From Elusimicrobiota bacterium (GTDB lineage: Bacteria; Elusimicrobiota; Elusimicrobia; UBA1565), in NCBI GenBank assembly GCA_003450735.1, contig DMEZ01000013.1, forward strand, positions 1 through 61,410: a stretch of 61,410 bases of DNA, written 5' to 3'. The notes under the pieces were generated by a model, which was not told where the DNA came from, made no database searches, and saw nothing but the letters and a program-made list of their open reading frames with translations. Positions 46,414 through 60,622 of this stretch are shown here, piece after piece (position 1 is the stretch's first letter; every line of letters starts with the position of its first letter). The position numbers and the translations under genes were made by a program.

Positions 46414-47307
46414 ATGCTATCGCCGATCCGCATATCCCCGAGCCTCGCGGCGCTCCTGCTCGCTCTGCCGGCGCATCCGGCCGCGCCGCAGCCGTCCACG
46501 ACCGAGATTATCCATACCGGTCATCTCATCGTGGATGATCATGAAGTCCCGCCGCCCTACAAGGTCGAAGCGATCGGGGAGATTGTCCTGCTGAACGGCA
46601 TCCAGATCTACCCGCACAAGCCCACGCCCTCCGAGATCGCGGAAAACGCCGAGAAGCAGGAGGCGAGGAAACTGCTGGACTCGCTCCACGAGGAGTTCGA
46701 CAAGATTGAGAAGCTGGAGGGGCATGAGAAGGCCGTCGACCAGCTAAGAATGGAATTGAGGAAACATCCCAAGTACAAGAACTTTTCAATCGAAGAGACG
46801 GATGGGGGTACCAGAGTCGATCTTGGGATGGGTAGCGATGATGCACTGGAGCATAGCTACTTCTTTCGATTCATGGGTAAGAAATATCGTCAATTTAATG
46901 ACAGTCACAGAGGTCCACTAATCGATCCAGGCTTAGGAATAGGGGACATCATCGAAATCGCAGTAAATCGGGTACTACTGGACCCTCTATTGCGGCTGGC
47001 TAGAGCAATCCTCGGAATCAAGATACAAAACGAAGAGAACCACCCCGGTTTCGCCAGCAAGACTATCCAAAGCGAGTTTAACTCGGTTACACATCCTTTG
47101 GGAACCAAGGGCTGCGTAGTGGTATTGGAAGGGCATTTATATTGGACAACCAAATTTAAAGCCAAGTTCGCTTGCGATGAATACTTGAGGGTCGTCCACA
47201 ATAAAACCACTATGGATGCCGCATGGAAAAACCTGCGCTATCATTTCGTGGACTCAGACTACATGGAGAAACATCTGCGGCGATACCTGAAAGCCAAAGG
47301 CAGATGA
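46414..47307 (+). CDS. Secreted hypothetical protein; the 3' two-thirds of the gene is compositionally anomalous (low GC)
   Basis: Signal peptide MLSPIRISPSLAALLLALPAHPAA. No domain recognised. GC drops sharply from about 46740 onward. Confidence 0.4.
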   Translation: MLSPIRISPSLAALLLALPAHPAAPQPSTTEIIHTGHLIVDDHEVPPPYKVEAIGEIVLLNGIQIYPHKPTPSEIAENAEKQEARKLLDSLHEEFDKIEKLEGHEKAVDQLRMELRKHPKYKNFSIEETDGGTRVDLGMGSDDALEHSYFFRFMGKKYRQFNDSHRGPLIDPGLGIGDIIEIAVNRVLLDPLLRLARAILGIKIQNEENHPGFASKTIQSEFNSVTHPLGTKGCVVVLEGHLYWTTKFKAKFACDEYLRVVHNKTTMDAAWKNLRYHFVDSDYMEKHLRRYLKAKGR

Positions 47308-47518
47308 TACATTCACGACGGGATACCGCTTGCCGTTGTTCGAGCTTCCGCCCCGCCGATAGGCGGGGACGAAGCCGCGCGCCCGAGGCGCGTAAAAAGC
47401 GCCTTTTCGACGGATCGGATCGCTCTATCCCATCTCTCGATCGTTGAACATGCAAACATTCTTCAAGGAGCGAGTCGCTCTCCCATCGATCAACCCTGTC
47501 TACTCCGACTTATAACCA

Positions 47519-47550
47519 CCTGTTCCGGCTCCATCCTGTTCCGGCTCCAT
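47519..47550. repeat. 16-bp perfect tandem duplication (CCTGTTCCGGCTCCAT x2)
   Basis: Read directly from the sequence. Confidence 0.9.
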
Positions 47551-47600
47551 CTTCTCCCGTGGGGGGGACTACTTGGAAATAACGCTTAAATAATAAGCCA

Positions 47601-47628
47601 AATCAACATCGTCCGGACGATGTTGATT
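47601..47628. repeat. Perfect 28-bp palindrome (AATCAACATCGTCC|GGACGATGTTGATT)
   Basis: Read directly from the sequence. Lies in the low-GC intergenic island between 47307 and 47919. Confidence 0.9.
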
Positions 47629-47918
47629 GTGCTGAAAAAATAAGCGGAATCTCAGAGGGGTGGGGGGGGCAGCCGTTCTCCCGGAGTCTCAACAACCCAT
47701 GAGGATCCCCTCATGTACCGATAGCATCGCAAGCGTTGGCACTCTTTCCACTCAAACGACCGGCACCCCGCCGGAACCGATGCGGACATCCCCGCTTGAA
47801 AGCCCAATCGCCTAGGCCCCCGAGCCCGACCGGCCCACTGCGCAGGCCCATTAGGCCCAGCGTGTTTTCAGGCCCCTAGCCCCTGTCGGCGCCCGCCTGA
47901 CGCCGCTACACTCAAGAC

Positions 47919-52895: not shown

Positions 52896-53582
52896 CTACG
52901 ATTTTTTGAGGGCTTTTTGCGCGGCTTTCTCGATGCGGCGCGCCGCGGCGGCCGGATCCCGGGCGCCGAACACCGCGCTGCCGGCGACCAGGCTGTCGGC
53001 GCCGGCGGACGCGGCCGCAGGCGCGGTCCGTTCGTCGATGCCCCCGTCCACCTGCAGCCAGGCCTTCAGGCCCCGGCGATCGAGCTCCCGGCGAAGGACG
53101 CGCACCTTGGAGAGCATCTTCGGCATGAAGGCTTGCCCGCCGAAGCCCGGCTCCACCGTCATGACGAGGGCGAGGTCGAGGTCGGCCAGGAAGGGGAGCA
53201 GGGCCGAGACAGGGGTCTTCGGCTTGATAGCCAGCCCGGCGCCGGTGCCGCGCGCGCGCAGGGCGCGCAGCAGCGGCCGCGGGCGCGGGCAGGCCTCCAG
53301 GTGGAAGACCACCCAATCCGCGCCGGCCTCGGCGAAGAGGGGGGCGTAGCGGACGGGGTCCGAGACCATGAGGTGCGCATCGAGCCGGCAAGCACCGCTC
53401 CGCAGGGCCTTCAGCGCGCTCGGGCCGTAGGTGAGGTTCGGGACGAAATGGCCGTCCATCACATCGAGGGAGGCCCAGCGGGCCCCGGACCGATCGAGGT
53501 CGCGGCGCAAGGCGCCCGGATCGGCCGAGAGGAGGGAGGGGACCACCCGCACCCGTCCGTCGGGGCGCAGGGGCCGCTTCAC
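52896..53582 (-). CDS. rpe: Ribulose-phosphate 3-epimerase
   Basis: GTG start overlapping the upstream stop. PSLLSAD, DVMDGHFVPN, MTVEPGFGGQ motifs. Confidence 0.85.
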   Translation of the reverse strand: MKRPLRPDGRVRVVPSLLSADPGALRRDLDRSGARWASLDVMDGHFVPNLTYGPSALKALRSGACRLDAHLMVSDPVRYAPLFAEAGADWVVFHLEACPRPRPLLRALRARGTGAGLAIKPKTPVSALLPFLADLDLALVMTVEPGFGGQAFMPKMLSKVRVLRRELDRRGLKAWLQVDGGIDERTAPAAASAGADSLVAGSAVFGARDPAAAARRIEKAAQKALKKS

Positions 53583-56615: not shown

Positions 56616-58172
56616 ATGCTGAAATTTCCGATAAAATGCGGGTTCATGGCCTCTCTTTCCGGCCAGACCGTGCTCCTCACCCGCCCCAAGCGCCAGTCCA
56701 GCGGGTTGGCTCGTTTGCTCGCGCGCCTGGGTGCCCGGAGCGTCCCGGTCCCGCTCATCCGCACGCGCGCCCCGCGCAGTTGGAAGCCGCTCGACGCGGC
56801 CCTGCGCGCCCTCGAAAGCTTCGATGCGGTGGCCTTCACGAGCGCCAACGGCGTGGAGGGCTTCTTCCAGAGGGCTCGCCGGGTCTTCAAGAGAACTCCT
56901 CGCGCCCCCCGGAGGATCTACGCCATCGGCCCGGCCACCGCCCAAGCCCTGGCCGGGCACGGCTGGCGGGCTCTCAGCGTCCCGGAGGACCACGAAGGAG
57001 GGGCCTTGGCCCGCCGCATGGGGAAGGTGAAGGGGATGAAGATCCTCATCCCCCGGGCCCAGACCGCTCGGGAGGAACTGCCGGCCCTCCTCCGGAAGGC
57101 GGGAGCCGACGTCCGCATCGCGCCCGCCTACCGGACGGAGCCTGATCCGGCAGGCCGCCGGGCCCTGCGCCGCTCATCAAGCGCCGACTGGGTGACCTTC
57201 ACTTCGGTCTCGACCGTCAGGGCGTTCTTCGACGCCCTGGGGGAGACGGAGGCCCGACGCTTCCTCTCCCGGGCCCGAGCCGCCGCCATCGGTCCAGTCA
57301 CGGCGGCCGAACTCAGGAGCCGCGGCGTCGAACCGGCGGCCCAGGCCCGGCCCTCCACCTCGGAGGGTCTCGCCCAGGCTCTCGCCGACGCCGCCGACCT
57401 CAGGGGCACGCTCGTCGCCGCCCTAAGGGAAGCCGGCGCCGTCCTGCGGGAGCGCTACGGGAAGGTGCATGTCCGCTACAAAGGGCGCGCGAACCTGGTC
57501 ACCGAGGCCGACCACGCCAGCGAGCAGCGCATCCTCGACGTCATCCTCTCCCGCTATCCGAGCCACGATTTTCTGACGGAAGAGCGCGAGCCCCGCTCGA
57601 CCGGCTCGGATTTCGTCTGGGTGGTGGACCCGCTCGACGGCACCACGAACTACGCGCACGGCTTCCCGGTCTTCTGCGTCTCCATCGGGCTCCTGCACCG
57701 AGGACGCCCGCTCCTGTCGGGAGTCTACGACCCCTGCCGGAACGAGATGTTCCTGGCCGAGCGGGGACGCGGGGCGATGCTCAACGGCAAGCCCCTGCGT
57801 GTCTCGAGAGCGGGGAACGTGTCCGAATCCCTCCTGCTGACCGGCTTCGCCTACGACCGGGCCGCGCGGGCCGACTACCTCATCCGCTTTTATAAGGAAT
57901 TCATGCGCCGCTGCCACGATGTGCGCCGTTCGGGCTCCGCCGCGCTGGACCTGGCGTGGACGGCCGCCGGCAGGGTGGACGGCTACTGGGAGTTCTCGCT
58001 CAAGCCCTGGGACGTCGCGGCCGGCTGGCTGCTGGTCAGCGAGGCGGGGGGGGAGGTCACCGACTTCTCCGGCAAGGCCTGGGACGGCCTGAAACTCCTT
58101 GGACGCGAGACCCTCGCCAGCAACGGCCGAATCCACGCGCAGATGCTCCGCCTCATCCGCCGCCACCTCTAA
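56616..58172 (+). CDS. Fusion protein: uroporphyrinogen-III synthase (HemD) domain + inositol monophosphatase-family (SuhB/IMPase) domain
   Basis: N-terminal ~250 aa HemD-like (VLLTRP...). C-terminal IMPase motifs TEADHASEQ, WVVDPLDGTTNY, WDVAAG. Alternative start at 56646. Confidence 0.65.
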   Translation: MLKFPIKCGFMASLSGQTVLLTRPKRQSSGLARLLARLGARSVPVPLIRTRAPRSWKPLDAALRALESFDAVAFTSANGVEGFFQRARRVFKRTPRAPRRIYAIGPATAQALAGHGWRALSVPEDHEGGALARRMGKVKGMKILIPRAQTAREELPALLRKAGADVRIAPAYRTEPDPAGRRALRRSSSADWVTFTSVSTVRAFFDALGETEARRFLSRARAAAIGPVTAAELRSRGVEPAAQARPSTSEGLAQALADAADLRGTLVAALREAGAVLRERYGKVHVRYKGRANLVTEADHASEQRILDVILSRYPSHDFLTEEREPRSTGSDFVWVVDPLDGTTNYAHGFPVFCVSIGLLHRGRPLLSGVYDPCRNEMFLAERGRGAMLNGKPLRVSRAGNVSESLLLTGFAYDRAARADYLIRFYKEFMRRCHDVRRSGSAALDLAWTAAGRVDGYWEFSLKPWDVAAGWLLVSEAGGEVTDFSGKAWDGLKLLGRETLASNGRIHAQMLRLIRRHL

Positions 58173-58297
58173 ACGCTGGTGCCTGAAACGCTGGTGCCTG
58201 TCATTACACTCCGCACACCATACACCTGGCGCCACAGGCCCGCATCAAGACCAAAGTGTAATGACCCGCAGGTGTAATGACAGGCACCTACTCCTAA
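58171..58297. repeat. Composite palindromic intergenic element: 15-bp tandem duplication, then a 17-bp perfect inverted repeat (GGTGCCTGTCATTACAC / GTGTAATGACAGGCACC) separated by 62 nt
   Basis: Tandem AAACGCTGGTGCCTG x2 at 58171-58200. IR arms at 58193-58209 and 58272-58288. GTGTAATGAC duplicated at 58257-58266. Confidence 0.85.
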
Positions 58298-59263
58298 CTA
58301 GAAGCGGGCGCCGATGGCGATGCGATGGGTGGTGCCGAGGTCGCCGAAGGGCACCCACGCGTAGTCCAGCCGCACGCGGCGCAGATCCACCCCGAGCCCC
58401 GCCGACGCCCCGGAGAAGCCTTCCAGGTCGCGCGCATAGCGCATGTTGTAGCCGCCGCGCACGCTGGCTCCGAAGCCCTCTCCGAAAGGCTGGTTGTACT
58501 CCGCGCCGAGGCAGAAGTACGGGTCCGAATCCACCGGCAGGTTCGCGTCCAGCAGGCCGTTGAAGCGAGGGCTGATGTGCCAGAGCGCACCGACCGCGGC
58601 CTTGAAGGGGAGCGGGTCGGACATCGAGCCGACCTTGATGGGGGGGCCGAAGTTCAGGATCGCGAGCCCGAGGTCGAGCGGGCTCTCGCCCAGGTCGGTG
58701 ATGCGCTCGACCTGGAGTCCGAAGTCCAGGGCGAAGGTGGAGCCCGAGGCGTCGTCGATCTCCGAACGGATGTACTTCAGGCTCGAGCCCAGCCGCACGC
58801 GCTTCAACTGCCGGGCGTAGCCGAACGCCAAGGCCAGATCGTTCGGCGCGAACTCCGAGGTCGGGTCGCCCACGGTGCTGTAGCCTTGGATGGCGGACTG
58901 GGAGAAGTAGACGAAGGACGCCCCGAGGACGCCCTTCTGCTCCGGAAGGGGGTGGGCGTAGGCGAGCGCGCCGGAATACATGGTCTCAAGGAGGTTGCTG
59001 TAGCCCATGGCTGCGTCGGGCCGGCCGGCAGCCTCCAGGCGGGAGAGCCCCGCGGGGTTCCAGAACATCGCCTCGGAGTTGTCCACGGCGGCGGCGCTGG
59101 CGCCTCCGAGAGAAGGGATGCGGCCGCCCGCCGGCAGCTTGAGAAAGGCCGCGCCGGTCGTGCCGGTAGCCTTGTCGGTGAAGGGGTCTTCCGGGAAGAC
59201 GCCCGCATGCGCCTGGACGGCCAACAGCGACGCGAAGAGGAGTACGGAGCTCAGACGGGCCAA
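58298..59263 (-). CDS. Outer-membrane beta-barrel protein (PorV/UPF0164-like, tentative)
   Basis: Signal peptide MARLSSVLLFASLLAVQAHA. Amphipathic beta-strand pattern. C-terminal ...IAIGARF aromatic terminus. Confidence 0.4.
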   Translation of the reverse strand: MARLSSVLLFASLLAVQAHAGVFPEDPFTDKATGTTGAAFLKLPAGGRIPSLGGASAAAVDNSEAMFWNPAGLSRLEAAGRPDAAMGYSNLLETMYSGALAYAHPLPEQKGVLGASFVYFSQSAIQGYSTVGDPTSEFAPNDLALAFGYARQLKRVRLGSSLKYIRSEIDDASGSTFALDFGLQVERITDLGESPLDLGLAILNFGPPIKVGSMSDPLPFKAAVGALWHISPRFNGLLDANLPVDSDPYFCLGAEYNQPFGEGFGASVRGGYNMRYARDLEGFSGASAGLGVDLRRVRLDYAWVPFGDLGTTHRIAIGARF

Positions 59264-60267
59264 ACCGGACCCCGGCCCTTCGGCTTTGGGATCGACTCAT
59301 CCGGCAGCGCCTCGTCCGCCGCGGGGGCGGCTGCCGGGGCGGGGGCAGGAGCGGGCGCCTGGACGTCCAGCTGGATGACAGGCTGAGCTTCAACGACGGG
59401 CGGCGGCACAGCGGGAGCCGGCTCGGCGGCGGGCGGAGGCGCAGCCGGCACGGCCGCCATCGCCTGGGCCAGCGCCTGCTCGGGAGTGGGGGCGGGGACG
59501 ATCTTGCCTGGGATCGGGATGCGGACAGGTTCGCGCTTCGTCGCGGGGAGCGGGGCGGCCGCGGGAGCCTGCTGCGGCGAGACGGCCTGCGGCTTCGGCG
59601 CCGCGGCGGGCGCGGGCGCGGCGGAGGGCTGGAGGACGACCGGCTTCGGAGCCGGAGCTGGGGCGGCCGTCCGAGGCTGCGCGGCCGGCTTCGAAGCCGG
59701 AGCCGGCGTGCCATGCGCTTCGACCTGTTCGTGGAGATCCCCCTGCAGTTCGGCGAGCCTCTTGAGCAGGGCGTCGAACTGGTTGTCGTGGCGGGAGACC
59801 ATCCCGTTGAGGTCGCCTCGGAGCTGGTGGATCTCCTTCTCGAAATGCTCCATCTGCATCTTCAGGTTCTGCAGGTAGACGACCGCCGGGCTCAGGCCCA
59901 GGGTGGTGACCTTGACGTCCGGCTTCTCCAGCGGCGAAGCCGAAGGGAGCGCGGCTTTGGATTCTGCGGCCGGGACCGGCGCCGGGGCGGGAGCGGGCGC
60001 AGGGGGGAGGGCGGCGGCGGGCTTGGGCGCCTCCGCCGGCTTCTCCTGGGGAACTTCGGCGACGAGCTTCGCGTCTTCTTTTTTCGGCGCTACGACCTTG
60101 ATCGGCTCGACGGTCTCCTCCGCTTCCGGCTCGATGGGAGGCTCGCCGGAATCCGTTTCGGCGACCACCTCGCGGTAGCGCTTGAGGAGAAAAGCGAAAA
60201 GACCGCCCCCGACGCCGAGGCCGGCCAGATACGCCCAAACCCAGTGGTCGAGAAAGATGGCTCCCAT
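59251..60267 (-). CDS. Membrane-anchored Pro/Ala-rich protein with a central coiled-coil segment (hypothetical)
   Basis: N-terminal TM WVWAYLAGLGVGGGLFAFLL. Long PAPAPAP low-complexity tracts. Central heptad-like region LQNLKMQMEHFEKEIHQLRGDL. Confidence 0.35.
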   Translation of the reverse strand: MGAIFLDHWVWAYLAGLGVGGGLFAFLLKRYREVVAETDSGEPPIEPEAEETVEPIKVVAPKKEDAKLVAEVPQEKPAEAPKPAAALPPAPAPAPAPVPAAESKAALPSASPLEKPDVKVTTLGLSPAVVYLQNLKMQMEHFEKEIHQLRGDLNGMVSRHDNQFDALLKRLAELQGDLHEQVEAHGTPAPASKPAAQPRTAAPAPAPKPVVLQPSAAPAPAAAPKPQAVSPQQAPAAAPLPATKREPVRIPIPGKIVPAPTPEQALAQAMAAVPAAPPPAAEPAPAVPPPVVEAQPVIQLDVQAPAPAPAPAAAPAADEALPDESIPKPKGRGPVWPV

Positions 60268-60326
60268 GGTCAGATTTGCAAGTTTAGAGGAATTTCATCC
60301 GTCTGTCAATAGGAGGTATGTGTTAT

Positions 60327-60431
60327 ATGCTGGAAAACTATGGATATGATGGATCAGCTGTTACGAATCATCAACAACAGGGTGTGGACGTTGTTAAACA
60401 ATTAATAAAATATTCAAGCCTGACACCATAA
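60327..60431 (+). CDS. Candidate small ORF (34 aa) in an AT-rich island
   Basis: AGGAGG at 60311-60316, 10 nt upstream of the ATG. Peptide MLENYGYDGSAVTNHQQQGVDVVKQLIKYSSLTP. Speculative. Confidence 0.2.
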   Translation: MLENYGYDGSAVTNHQQQGVDVVKQLIKYSSLTP

Positions 60432-60622
60432 ATTACAAACAATGATGAATACTGCTTGTTTTATATGCATTATAAGTGACTCTCTCGTGCATAACAAGTC
60501 TGGCACTCATTAACTTGACTGCCTGAGCTCCGGTTTGCTATCATTGCCGGACATGCTCGTACATTCGCCGAGTCCCTCCGCCGCGTGCATGCAATCCCAA
60601 CTGTGACGGGAGCCCCCATATC

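Follow-up and report, generated by a model that had tools for sequence, protein, structure and literature searches.

Miniature inverted-repeat transposable elements (MITEs) known from bacteria, such as the Correia (nemis) elements of Neisseria and the ERIC (IRU) elements of enterobacteria, are non-coding sequences of ~100–150 bp with terminal inverted repeats. They lie in transcribed intergenic DNA near gene ends and form a long hairpin in the mRNA. A repetitive extragenic palindromic (REP) unit is a 20–40-bp imperfect palindrome with a GTAG or CGTC head (PMC3733652). TIRYTs are RAYT-like Y1 transposases with a C-terminal Bac_DnaA_C or helix-turn-helix (HTH) domain; they are flanked by terminal inverted repeats (TIRs) that sometimes overlap the 3' end of the gene and are found scattered, singly or as dimers (Di Nocera et al. 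2013, PMC3733652; Quentin et al. 2018, PMC6006769). The element described here occupies positions 58193–58288 of the window, which is the whole 61,410-bp stretch analysed, contig DMEZ01000013.1 of an Elusimicrobia metagenome-assembled genome (MAG) from groundwater. The window is compact and 68% GC. Most probably it is what remains, in MITE-like form, of an uncharacterised mobile element of Elusimicrobiota: a two-ended non-coding miniature whose family is most likely undescribed and which, as a feature, is most likely of an ordinary kind.

An earlier note on this DNA had described a 15-bp perfect tandem duplication leading into a 17-bp perfect inverted repeat with arms 62 nt apart, a local duplication of the right arm and a smaller enclosed hairpin, the whole filling a convergent intergenic gap. 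All of these are present at the positions listed in Table 1, with the qualification that the enclosed hairpin CCTGGCGCCACAGG has a stem of merely 4 bp. From 58171 to 58297 the DNA reads AAACGCTGGTGCCTG AAACGCTGGTGCCTG TCATTACAC, a 62-nt interior, GTGTAATGAC CCGCAG GTGTAATGAC AGGCACC TACTCCTAA, 62 nt being the distance between the arms given by the repeat finder. The first copy of the tandem duplication holds a partial extra copy of the outer repeat (GGTGCCTG, 58178–58185). The arms GGTGCCTGTCATTACAC and GTGTAATGACAGGCACC form the perfect 17-nt inverted repeat, which continues imperfectly to ~37 bp and includes the inner 10-mers. GTGTAATGAC occurs at 58256–58265 and 58272–58281, with an inverted copy at 58200–58209; counted as GTCATTACAC, the 10-mer is present in three perfect copies and one degenerate copy with a fixed 16-bp phasing. 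The degenerate copy, at the inner left position, goes beyond the earlier description and gives a two-site layout at both ends. The element is thus composed of two ~38-bp ends joined by ~20 bp that hold the weak 4-bp hairpin.

This palindromic element is real and non-random, far beyond what chance would produce. Shuffling the gap 1000 times gives no perfect inverted repeat longer than 12 nt, compared with the 17 observed. The 17-mer and the 15-mer have two matches each in the window, all at the element, where 0.03–0.04 would be expected. Of the 25 longest inverted-repeat pairs listed for the window, its arms alone are 100% complementary, and its tandem duplication is one of only two perfect tandem duplications of at least 15 bp there. 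At 96 bp the element falls within the small-size class (<~600 bp) and is crossed only by spurious long open reading frames (ORFs). Its GC content of 57% is set against 68% for the window, in which only 5% of 96-bp windows are this low.

One indication of mobility is the recurrence of one end at another locus. Exact matches to the 17-mer were sought in 185,579 species genomes (one genome per species) and in metagenome contigs of the Joint Genome Institute (JGI). Neither collection returned the element itself; the source assemblies evidently lie outside both. Among the 34 matches in JGI contigs, that in L026 (Ga0156579_1273), an Elusimicrobiota contig of 1249 bp, is alone in extending beyond the 17-mer: its positions 485–520 match the right end of the window element at 33 of 36 bases, the subterminal duplicate included. 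Where the window reads AAGTGTAATGACCCGCAGGTGTAATGACAGGCACC followed by T, L026 reads AAGTGTAATGTCCCCCAAGTGTAATGACAGGCACC followed by T, and the homology ends at the same outer base, between GGCACC and T. With the 17-mer by which the contig was selected set aside, 16 of the remaining 19 positions agree, for which our own binomial estimate is ~1e-7 per locus.

The DNA on the two sides of this boundary in L026 is of different character. Beyond it lies an FtsX-type ABC permease gene, whose best matches are Elusimicrobiota proteins at 60–80% identity, while the segment within it (positions 1–519, at least 519 bp) has a GC content of 54% against 68% for the DNA outside. In two relatives the permease gene is directly followed by a mutY-like gene. 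This adjacency is interrupted in L026, which argues that the segment is an insertion or a rearrangement. A frame in the segment is open for at least 170 codons from the contig start, with stop codons inside the outer terminal repeat; transposase genes of insertion sequences commonly have their stop within the terminal repeat. The same terminus at two unrelated loci with an identical boundary is the signature of a dispersed mobile sequence. The dispersal proposed is one between Elusimicrobiota loci, of the same or of different species.

The remaining matches to the 17-mer carry no such information. Two in JGI contigs, L031 and L033, looked longer and turned out to be unrelated AT-rich sequence. 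The 13 in species genomes are all single arms and are ascribed to chance; three of these loci, read directly, lie in coding-looking sequence (e.g. GVRVMTGT, MVPVITP, a Chloroflexi repeat protein), and the others gain no more than 4 bases when extended by BLAST.

With L026 included, three ends can be compared, namely the left and right ends in the window and the right end in L026. They align as CCAR-GTGTAATGNC-N6-GTGTAATGAC-AGGCACC, the sites being conserved and the spacers variable. The common plan, with the left end of the window reverse-complemented, is an outer GTGTAATGAC-AGGCACC, a 6-nt variable spacer, an inner 10-mer and then CCAR. The inner 10-mer is GTGTAATGAC or GTGTAATGTC, and in the left end the degenerate GTGTATGGTG. 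An outer 17-bp site followed by a 6-nt spacer and an inner 10-mer is the layout that would be expected of paired binding sites for a transposase or recombinase. The three perfect and one degenerate copies of GTCATTACAC at fixed 16-bp phasing would also suit an operator array, in which three or four copies serve as sites for a host regulator of a flanking gene. Such an array would, however, lie at the 3' ends of both genes and not near a promoter, neither the remainder of the window nor the orthologous loci contain the 10-mer, and the same array terminates a foreign segment in L026; an operator is thus extremely improbable.

The convergent genes on either side of the element encode a HemD–SuhB fusion protein and a PorV-family outer-membrane protein, and the 125 bp between their stop codons (58173–58297) are filled by the palindromic stretch. 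The TAA stop of the HemD–SuhB gene (58170–58172) abuts the tandem duplication, and the PorV stop codon (58298–58300) is 9 nt away from the right repeat. Both genes are 69–70% GC, and the other convergent gaps in the window mostly measure −31 to +56 bp on a crude GC3-based gene map. In the relatives compared, the fusion protein is 59–69% identical, the upstream gene order is the same and a convergent PorV-type gene lies downstream wherever the fetched DNA reaches. Neither the 10-mer nor the 17-mer is present in their orthologous junctions, whose contents differ from one relative to the next (Table 1). These varied contents suggest that the gap is a place where lineages gained different DNA. By this comparison the element is specific to the lineage of the window, and extra DNA appears to have landed repeatedly at the convergent junction.

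The element is predicted to fold as RNA into a hairpin of −43.9 and −57.5 kcal/mol on the two strands. Folding had been suggested in the earlier note as a check, and this stability is significant relative to shuffled sequences on both strands (z = −3.3 for the + strand and −3.65 for the − strand) and also as DNA (z = −4.4). The predicted fold, together with a position exactly between two convergent stop codons, would fit an RNA hairpin particular to this locus, evolved in situ to terminate transcription in both directions or to stabilise the 3' ends of both genes, and the corresponding gap of one relative (L055) holds hairpins bordered by A and T runs. The earlier note had offered a bidirectional terminator as one option, but in its canonical form this is not borne out. 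The stem is followed by UACUCCUAAC on the + strand and AGCGUUUCAGG on the − strand, with no T/U run on either, and a scan of 58173–58297 called no terminator and no promoter-like site. Intrinsic terminators are short GC-rich stem-loops with a U-tract behind them and, when bidirectional, an A-tract in front; arms of 17 bp enclosing 62 nt do not resemble them, and the GC content is atypical of the genome. The sequence is unconserved in orthologous gaps, one relative having no gap at all, and a hairpin that arose in place leaves the same 38-bp end at an unrelated locus unexplained. This origin is therefore very unlikely.

A structured small RNA, the other RNA-level option of the earlier note, fares no better. 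As an independently transcribed molecule it would draw on the significant folding energy as its sole support, whereas Rfam 15 gives no match at E<=10 in 57900–58600 (and none at gathering score across the window), the gap holds no promoter-like site, and relatives show no conservation. Furthermore, a duplex of 17 bp without a mismatch is the kind typically seen in DNA-level repeats and not in functional RNAs, making a small RNA scarcely credible. Effects on termination or 3'-end stability have been reported for other intergenic palindromic elements. Both convergent mRNAs would carry the element as a long hairpin at their 3' ends, where it may, as a side effect, cause transcription to stall or stop, or shield the ends. 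A terminator or RNA-hairpin effect of this kind is plausible and would be secondary.

What remains of the options in the earlier note is a REP/MITE-like element, and here the two halves of the term part ways. The classical REP form is not supported, as the arms are not palindromes and lack GTAG/CGTC. The MITE-like form is supported by terminal inverted repeats with repeated subterminal sites, GC content below that of the host, presence confined to one lineage (with absence from orthologous junctions) and an end that recurs elsewhere with the same boundary. As a MITE-like remnant, the miniature would have inserted into an originally almost gap-free junction of two convergent housekeeping genes. 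To move, it would depend on a protein that a longer relative provides in trans and that binds the sites at its ends; this relative could be the low-GC segment of L026, which has the same terminus. The 15-bp tandem duplication to its left would be a later event, still polymorphic, in which the flank and the outermost 8 nt of the repeat were copied locally. Where it now sits, the element is probably a passenger.

Variation among strains bears on the left flank. Two contigs from other samples, L001 (6812–6830) and L004, are ~99.9% identical to the window and lack GTGCCT (window 58178–58183) in the first copy of the tandem duplication. Their allele reads AAACGCTGG twice and then TGCCTG, giving alleles of 9+15 as opposed to 15+15. 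This 6-bp difference between strains indicates that the left flank is evolving fast, and it does not look like simple slippage by a unit length. Elsewhere in L001 (~1636–1640), the contig is 77 bp shorter than the window at ~53002–53078, inside a ribulose-phosphate 3-epimerase gene that is called as two ORFs in the JGI strain contig and as one 228-aa gene in the ENA contig. This difference is either a deletion/pseudogene or an assembly artefact.

Several observations weigh against a MITE-like remnant. The window and ~7 kb of additional sequence from a sister contig (~68 kb of genome) contain one complete copy and no second. Apart from L026, none was found in public genome, metagenome, viral, plasmid and phage collections, outside which the source genome evidently lies. 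No target-site duplication adjoins the repeats, the left flank being AAACGCT and the right flank TACTCCT, and the left flank has been altered later by the 15-bp duplication. L026 could equally represent another element inserted into a second copy of the miniature, in which case the end is dispersed just as it is if L026 holds the long parent. No transposase has been identified, because the L026 frame has no detectable homologue in an index of 5.8 billion proteins and matches the C-terminal HTH of DnaA only below threshold (Pfam Bac_DnaA_C, E=0.08, 13.4 bits compared with a cut-off of 31.5; NCBIfam DnaA, E=0.0015). The four available copies of the locus are all from near-identical strains (1 mismatch in 14.8 kb relative to L002 and 1 over the 8.4-kb main alignment with L001), too alike to show conservation or covariation.

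The searches behind these statements covered several kinds of collection. Three DNA patterns and one protein query found nothing related in viral contigs, and plasmid and phage collections gave no meaningful match to the element, the L026 segment or the L026 ORF. The ORF has no match in PHROGs, only noise in the PDB and no homologue in phage, plasmid or viral collections. A search for tRNAs found none, and a literature search for the repeat sequence returned unrelated primers only. Some other readings were considered and rejected. A target-site duplication read from the similarity of flanking CTAA, or of CCTCTAA to CTCCTAA, fails because 5–20 nt separate these bases from the repeats and L026 does not share the right-hand bases in between. 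Readings as a dif/Xer site or an integron attC are countered by the lack of an XerD-arm-like half-site and of a GTTRRRY core and by the housekeeping-gene context.

The absence of a target-site duplication is what would be expected under a different mode of mobility. In this alternative, two TIR units would be joined as a dimer, much as in a REPIN, and a HUH tyrosine transposase of the RAYT/TIRYT type with a DnaA-C-like C-terminal HTH would mobilise the element as a folded single strand; it would then not derive by deletion from a DDE insertion sequence. As single-stranded DNA the 96 nt form one predicted hairpin over their full length, with the z-score given above, and the one similarity of the L026 frame, itself weak, is to DnaA domain IV at the E-values already cited. 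Y1 transposases with Bac_DnaA_C or HTH C-termini flanked by such TIRs have been published (PMC3733652, PMC6006769). On the other hand, comparison of the L026 fragment with the C-termini of 12 TIRYTs taken from the published supplement, by BLASTP and with a profile built from them, reveals no similarity, and the DnaA-C matches fall far under curated cut-offs. The repeat lacks the GGGGWSAS motif of most TIRYT repeats, and its arms are not self-complementary like REPs. No Y1_Tnp match is present in the 168 aa of the ORF available; its N-terminal part lies beyond the contig start, so that the HUH/catalytic-tyrosine part, if it exists, is off the contig. TIRYT is thus kept as a rival and not as a classification, given the dissimilar C-terminus, the missing motif and the catalytic part off the contig, and we consider the single-strand route unlikely.

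A broader proposal, which is doubtful, is that the element and the L026 terminus define an undescribed transposon family specific to Elusimicrobiota. Such a family would make no target-site duplication, would carry paired 10-bp sites at 16-bp phasing at each end and would have an end-proximal orphan gene with a DNA-binding fold like that of DnaA domain IV. It could be a divergent HUH/TIRYT-like single-strand system, with the 96-bp hairpin as its REPIN-like non-autonomous partner.

Table 1. Features of the element, its flanking genes and the orthologous junctions (window coordinates unless a contig is named).
Feature	Position	Strand	Basis
Left flanking gene, HemD (uroporphyrinogen-III synthase)–SuhB (inositol monophosphatase) fusion, 518 aa	56616..58172	+	PF02602 + PF00459
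15-bp tandem duplication AAACGCTGGTGCCTG, copy 1, outside the inverted repeat	58171..58185	+	repeat finder
15-bp tandem duplication AAACGCTGGTGCCTG, copy 2; its final 8 nt form the outer portion of the left terminal inverted repeat	58186..58200	+	repeat finder
Whole miniature, repeat to repeat, 96 bp, 57% GC, non-coding, folds as one long imperfect hairpin	58193..58288	.	composition + folding
Left terminal inverted repeat, outer site, GGTGCCTGTCATTACAC	58193..58209	+	repeat finder
Left inner degenerate 10-mer CACCATACAC, 6/10 matches to GTCATTACAC, 6 nt inside the outer site	58216..58225	+	alignment of three ends
Central hairpin CCTGGCGCCACAGG, 4-bp stem, 6-nt loop; apex of the long predicted hairpin, weak alone	58225..58238	+	sequence + folding
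Right inner 10-mer GTGTAATGAC, 6 nt inside the outer site	58256..58265	+	repeat finder, alignment
Right terminal inverted repeat, outer site, GTGTAATGACAGGCACC; outer boundary after ...GGCACC common to the L026 copy	58272..58288	+	repeat finder, alignment
Right flanking gene, PorV-family outer-membrane protein, 321 aa	58298..59263	-	PF19572
L054 junction, two genes overlap by 4 bp	L054 5554-5557
L055 and L056 junction, 175 bp, unrelated small hairpins flanked by A and T runs (L055: A5, T6)	L055 5636-5810
L052 junction, 246 bp, other repeats: GATCGCCCCTCTCCCGACCCTC twice and G/C-run palindromes	L052 5552-5797
L053 junction, start of an IS110-like transposase gene (MIHVGIDYHKRSS)	L053 5540-5763

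An "Elusimicrobia bacterium" MAG at NCBI encodes a protein with 100% identity to the HemD–SuhB fusion protein of the window. The fusion is common to dozens of Elusimicrobiota proteins of 500–545 aa and is conserved throughout the phylum.

Other parts of the window also depart from its usual composition. The stretch at 47307–47918, ~610 bp long, is non-coding, has ~56% GC and is not related in sequence to the element at 58.2 kb. It contains the only other perfect tandem duplication of at least 15 bp in the window, CCTGTTCCGGCTCCAT in 2.1 copies (47519–47551), and a 78-bp AT-rich imperfect palindrome (47576–47653) with a perfect 28-bp core, AATCAACATCGTCC / GGACGATGTTGATT. This stretch might be another foreign or regulatory element. 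It adjoins an ORF of 297 aa (46414–47307) whose GC content is clearly below that of its neighbours. A further low-GC region (56%), at 60281–60544, holds 3 of the 5 sigma-70-like promoter matches in the 11 kb scanned, arranged divergently, and is probably a divergent promoter region upstream of the genes at 59251–60267 (− strand) and beyond.

The finding is of modest reach and has no bearing on any major open question. If the MITE-like reading is true, it adds a small mobile-element family to Elusimicrobiota, a phylum known almost solely from metagenomes, and GGTGCCTGTCATTACAC together with the GTCATTACAC repeats would provide a handle for finding the autonomous parent. For annotation, the element accounts for an unusual 125-bp gap in an otherwise densely packed genome, and it is a caution against annotating such a hairpin as a terminator or small RNA.

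A comparison of the element with the described systems shows how its features are shared out among them. It resembles Correia/nemis and ERIC/IRU elements in size class, terminal inverted repeats, position at gene ends and fold into a long hairpin. Unlike them, it has no TA or other target duplication, its sequence is unrelated, its host is an Elusimicrobiota and it is present once in the ~68 kb examined. With REPINs and REP-BIMEs (bacterial interspersed mosaic elements built of REPs) mobilised by RAYTs it shares two inverted units ~60 nt apart and a hairpin in an extragenic gap between convergent genes, and the related L026 copy abuts a gene end as do the REPs flanking RAYT genes. It differs from these in that the arm GGTGCCTGTCATTACAC is not self-complementary and lacks GTAG/CGTC, in having one copy in ~68 kb and not dozens, and in that no RAYT was identified. 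REPs come in tens to hundreds of extragenic copies.

The repeats associated with TIRtrons and TIRYTs offer a possible likeness in their class features, which are non-REP inverted repeats at or overlapping the 3' end of a gene, a protein that can carry a DnaA-C-like HTH and repeats that can occur as dispersed dimers. The C-terminal fragment in L026 is unlike the published C-termini, and the repeat lacks GGGGWSAS. Finally, multi-site transposon ends, such as those of the IS21 family, Mu/Tn7 and the IR-DR Tc1-like elements (inverted repeats containing direct repeats), differ from the element, whose termini are GG...CC rather than TG...CA and which has no target duplication and no known transposase. 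They nonetheless share its basic design, in which each end carries an outer site and a phased inner repeat of the terminal sequence.

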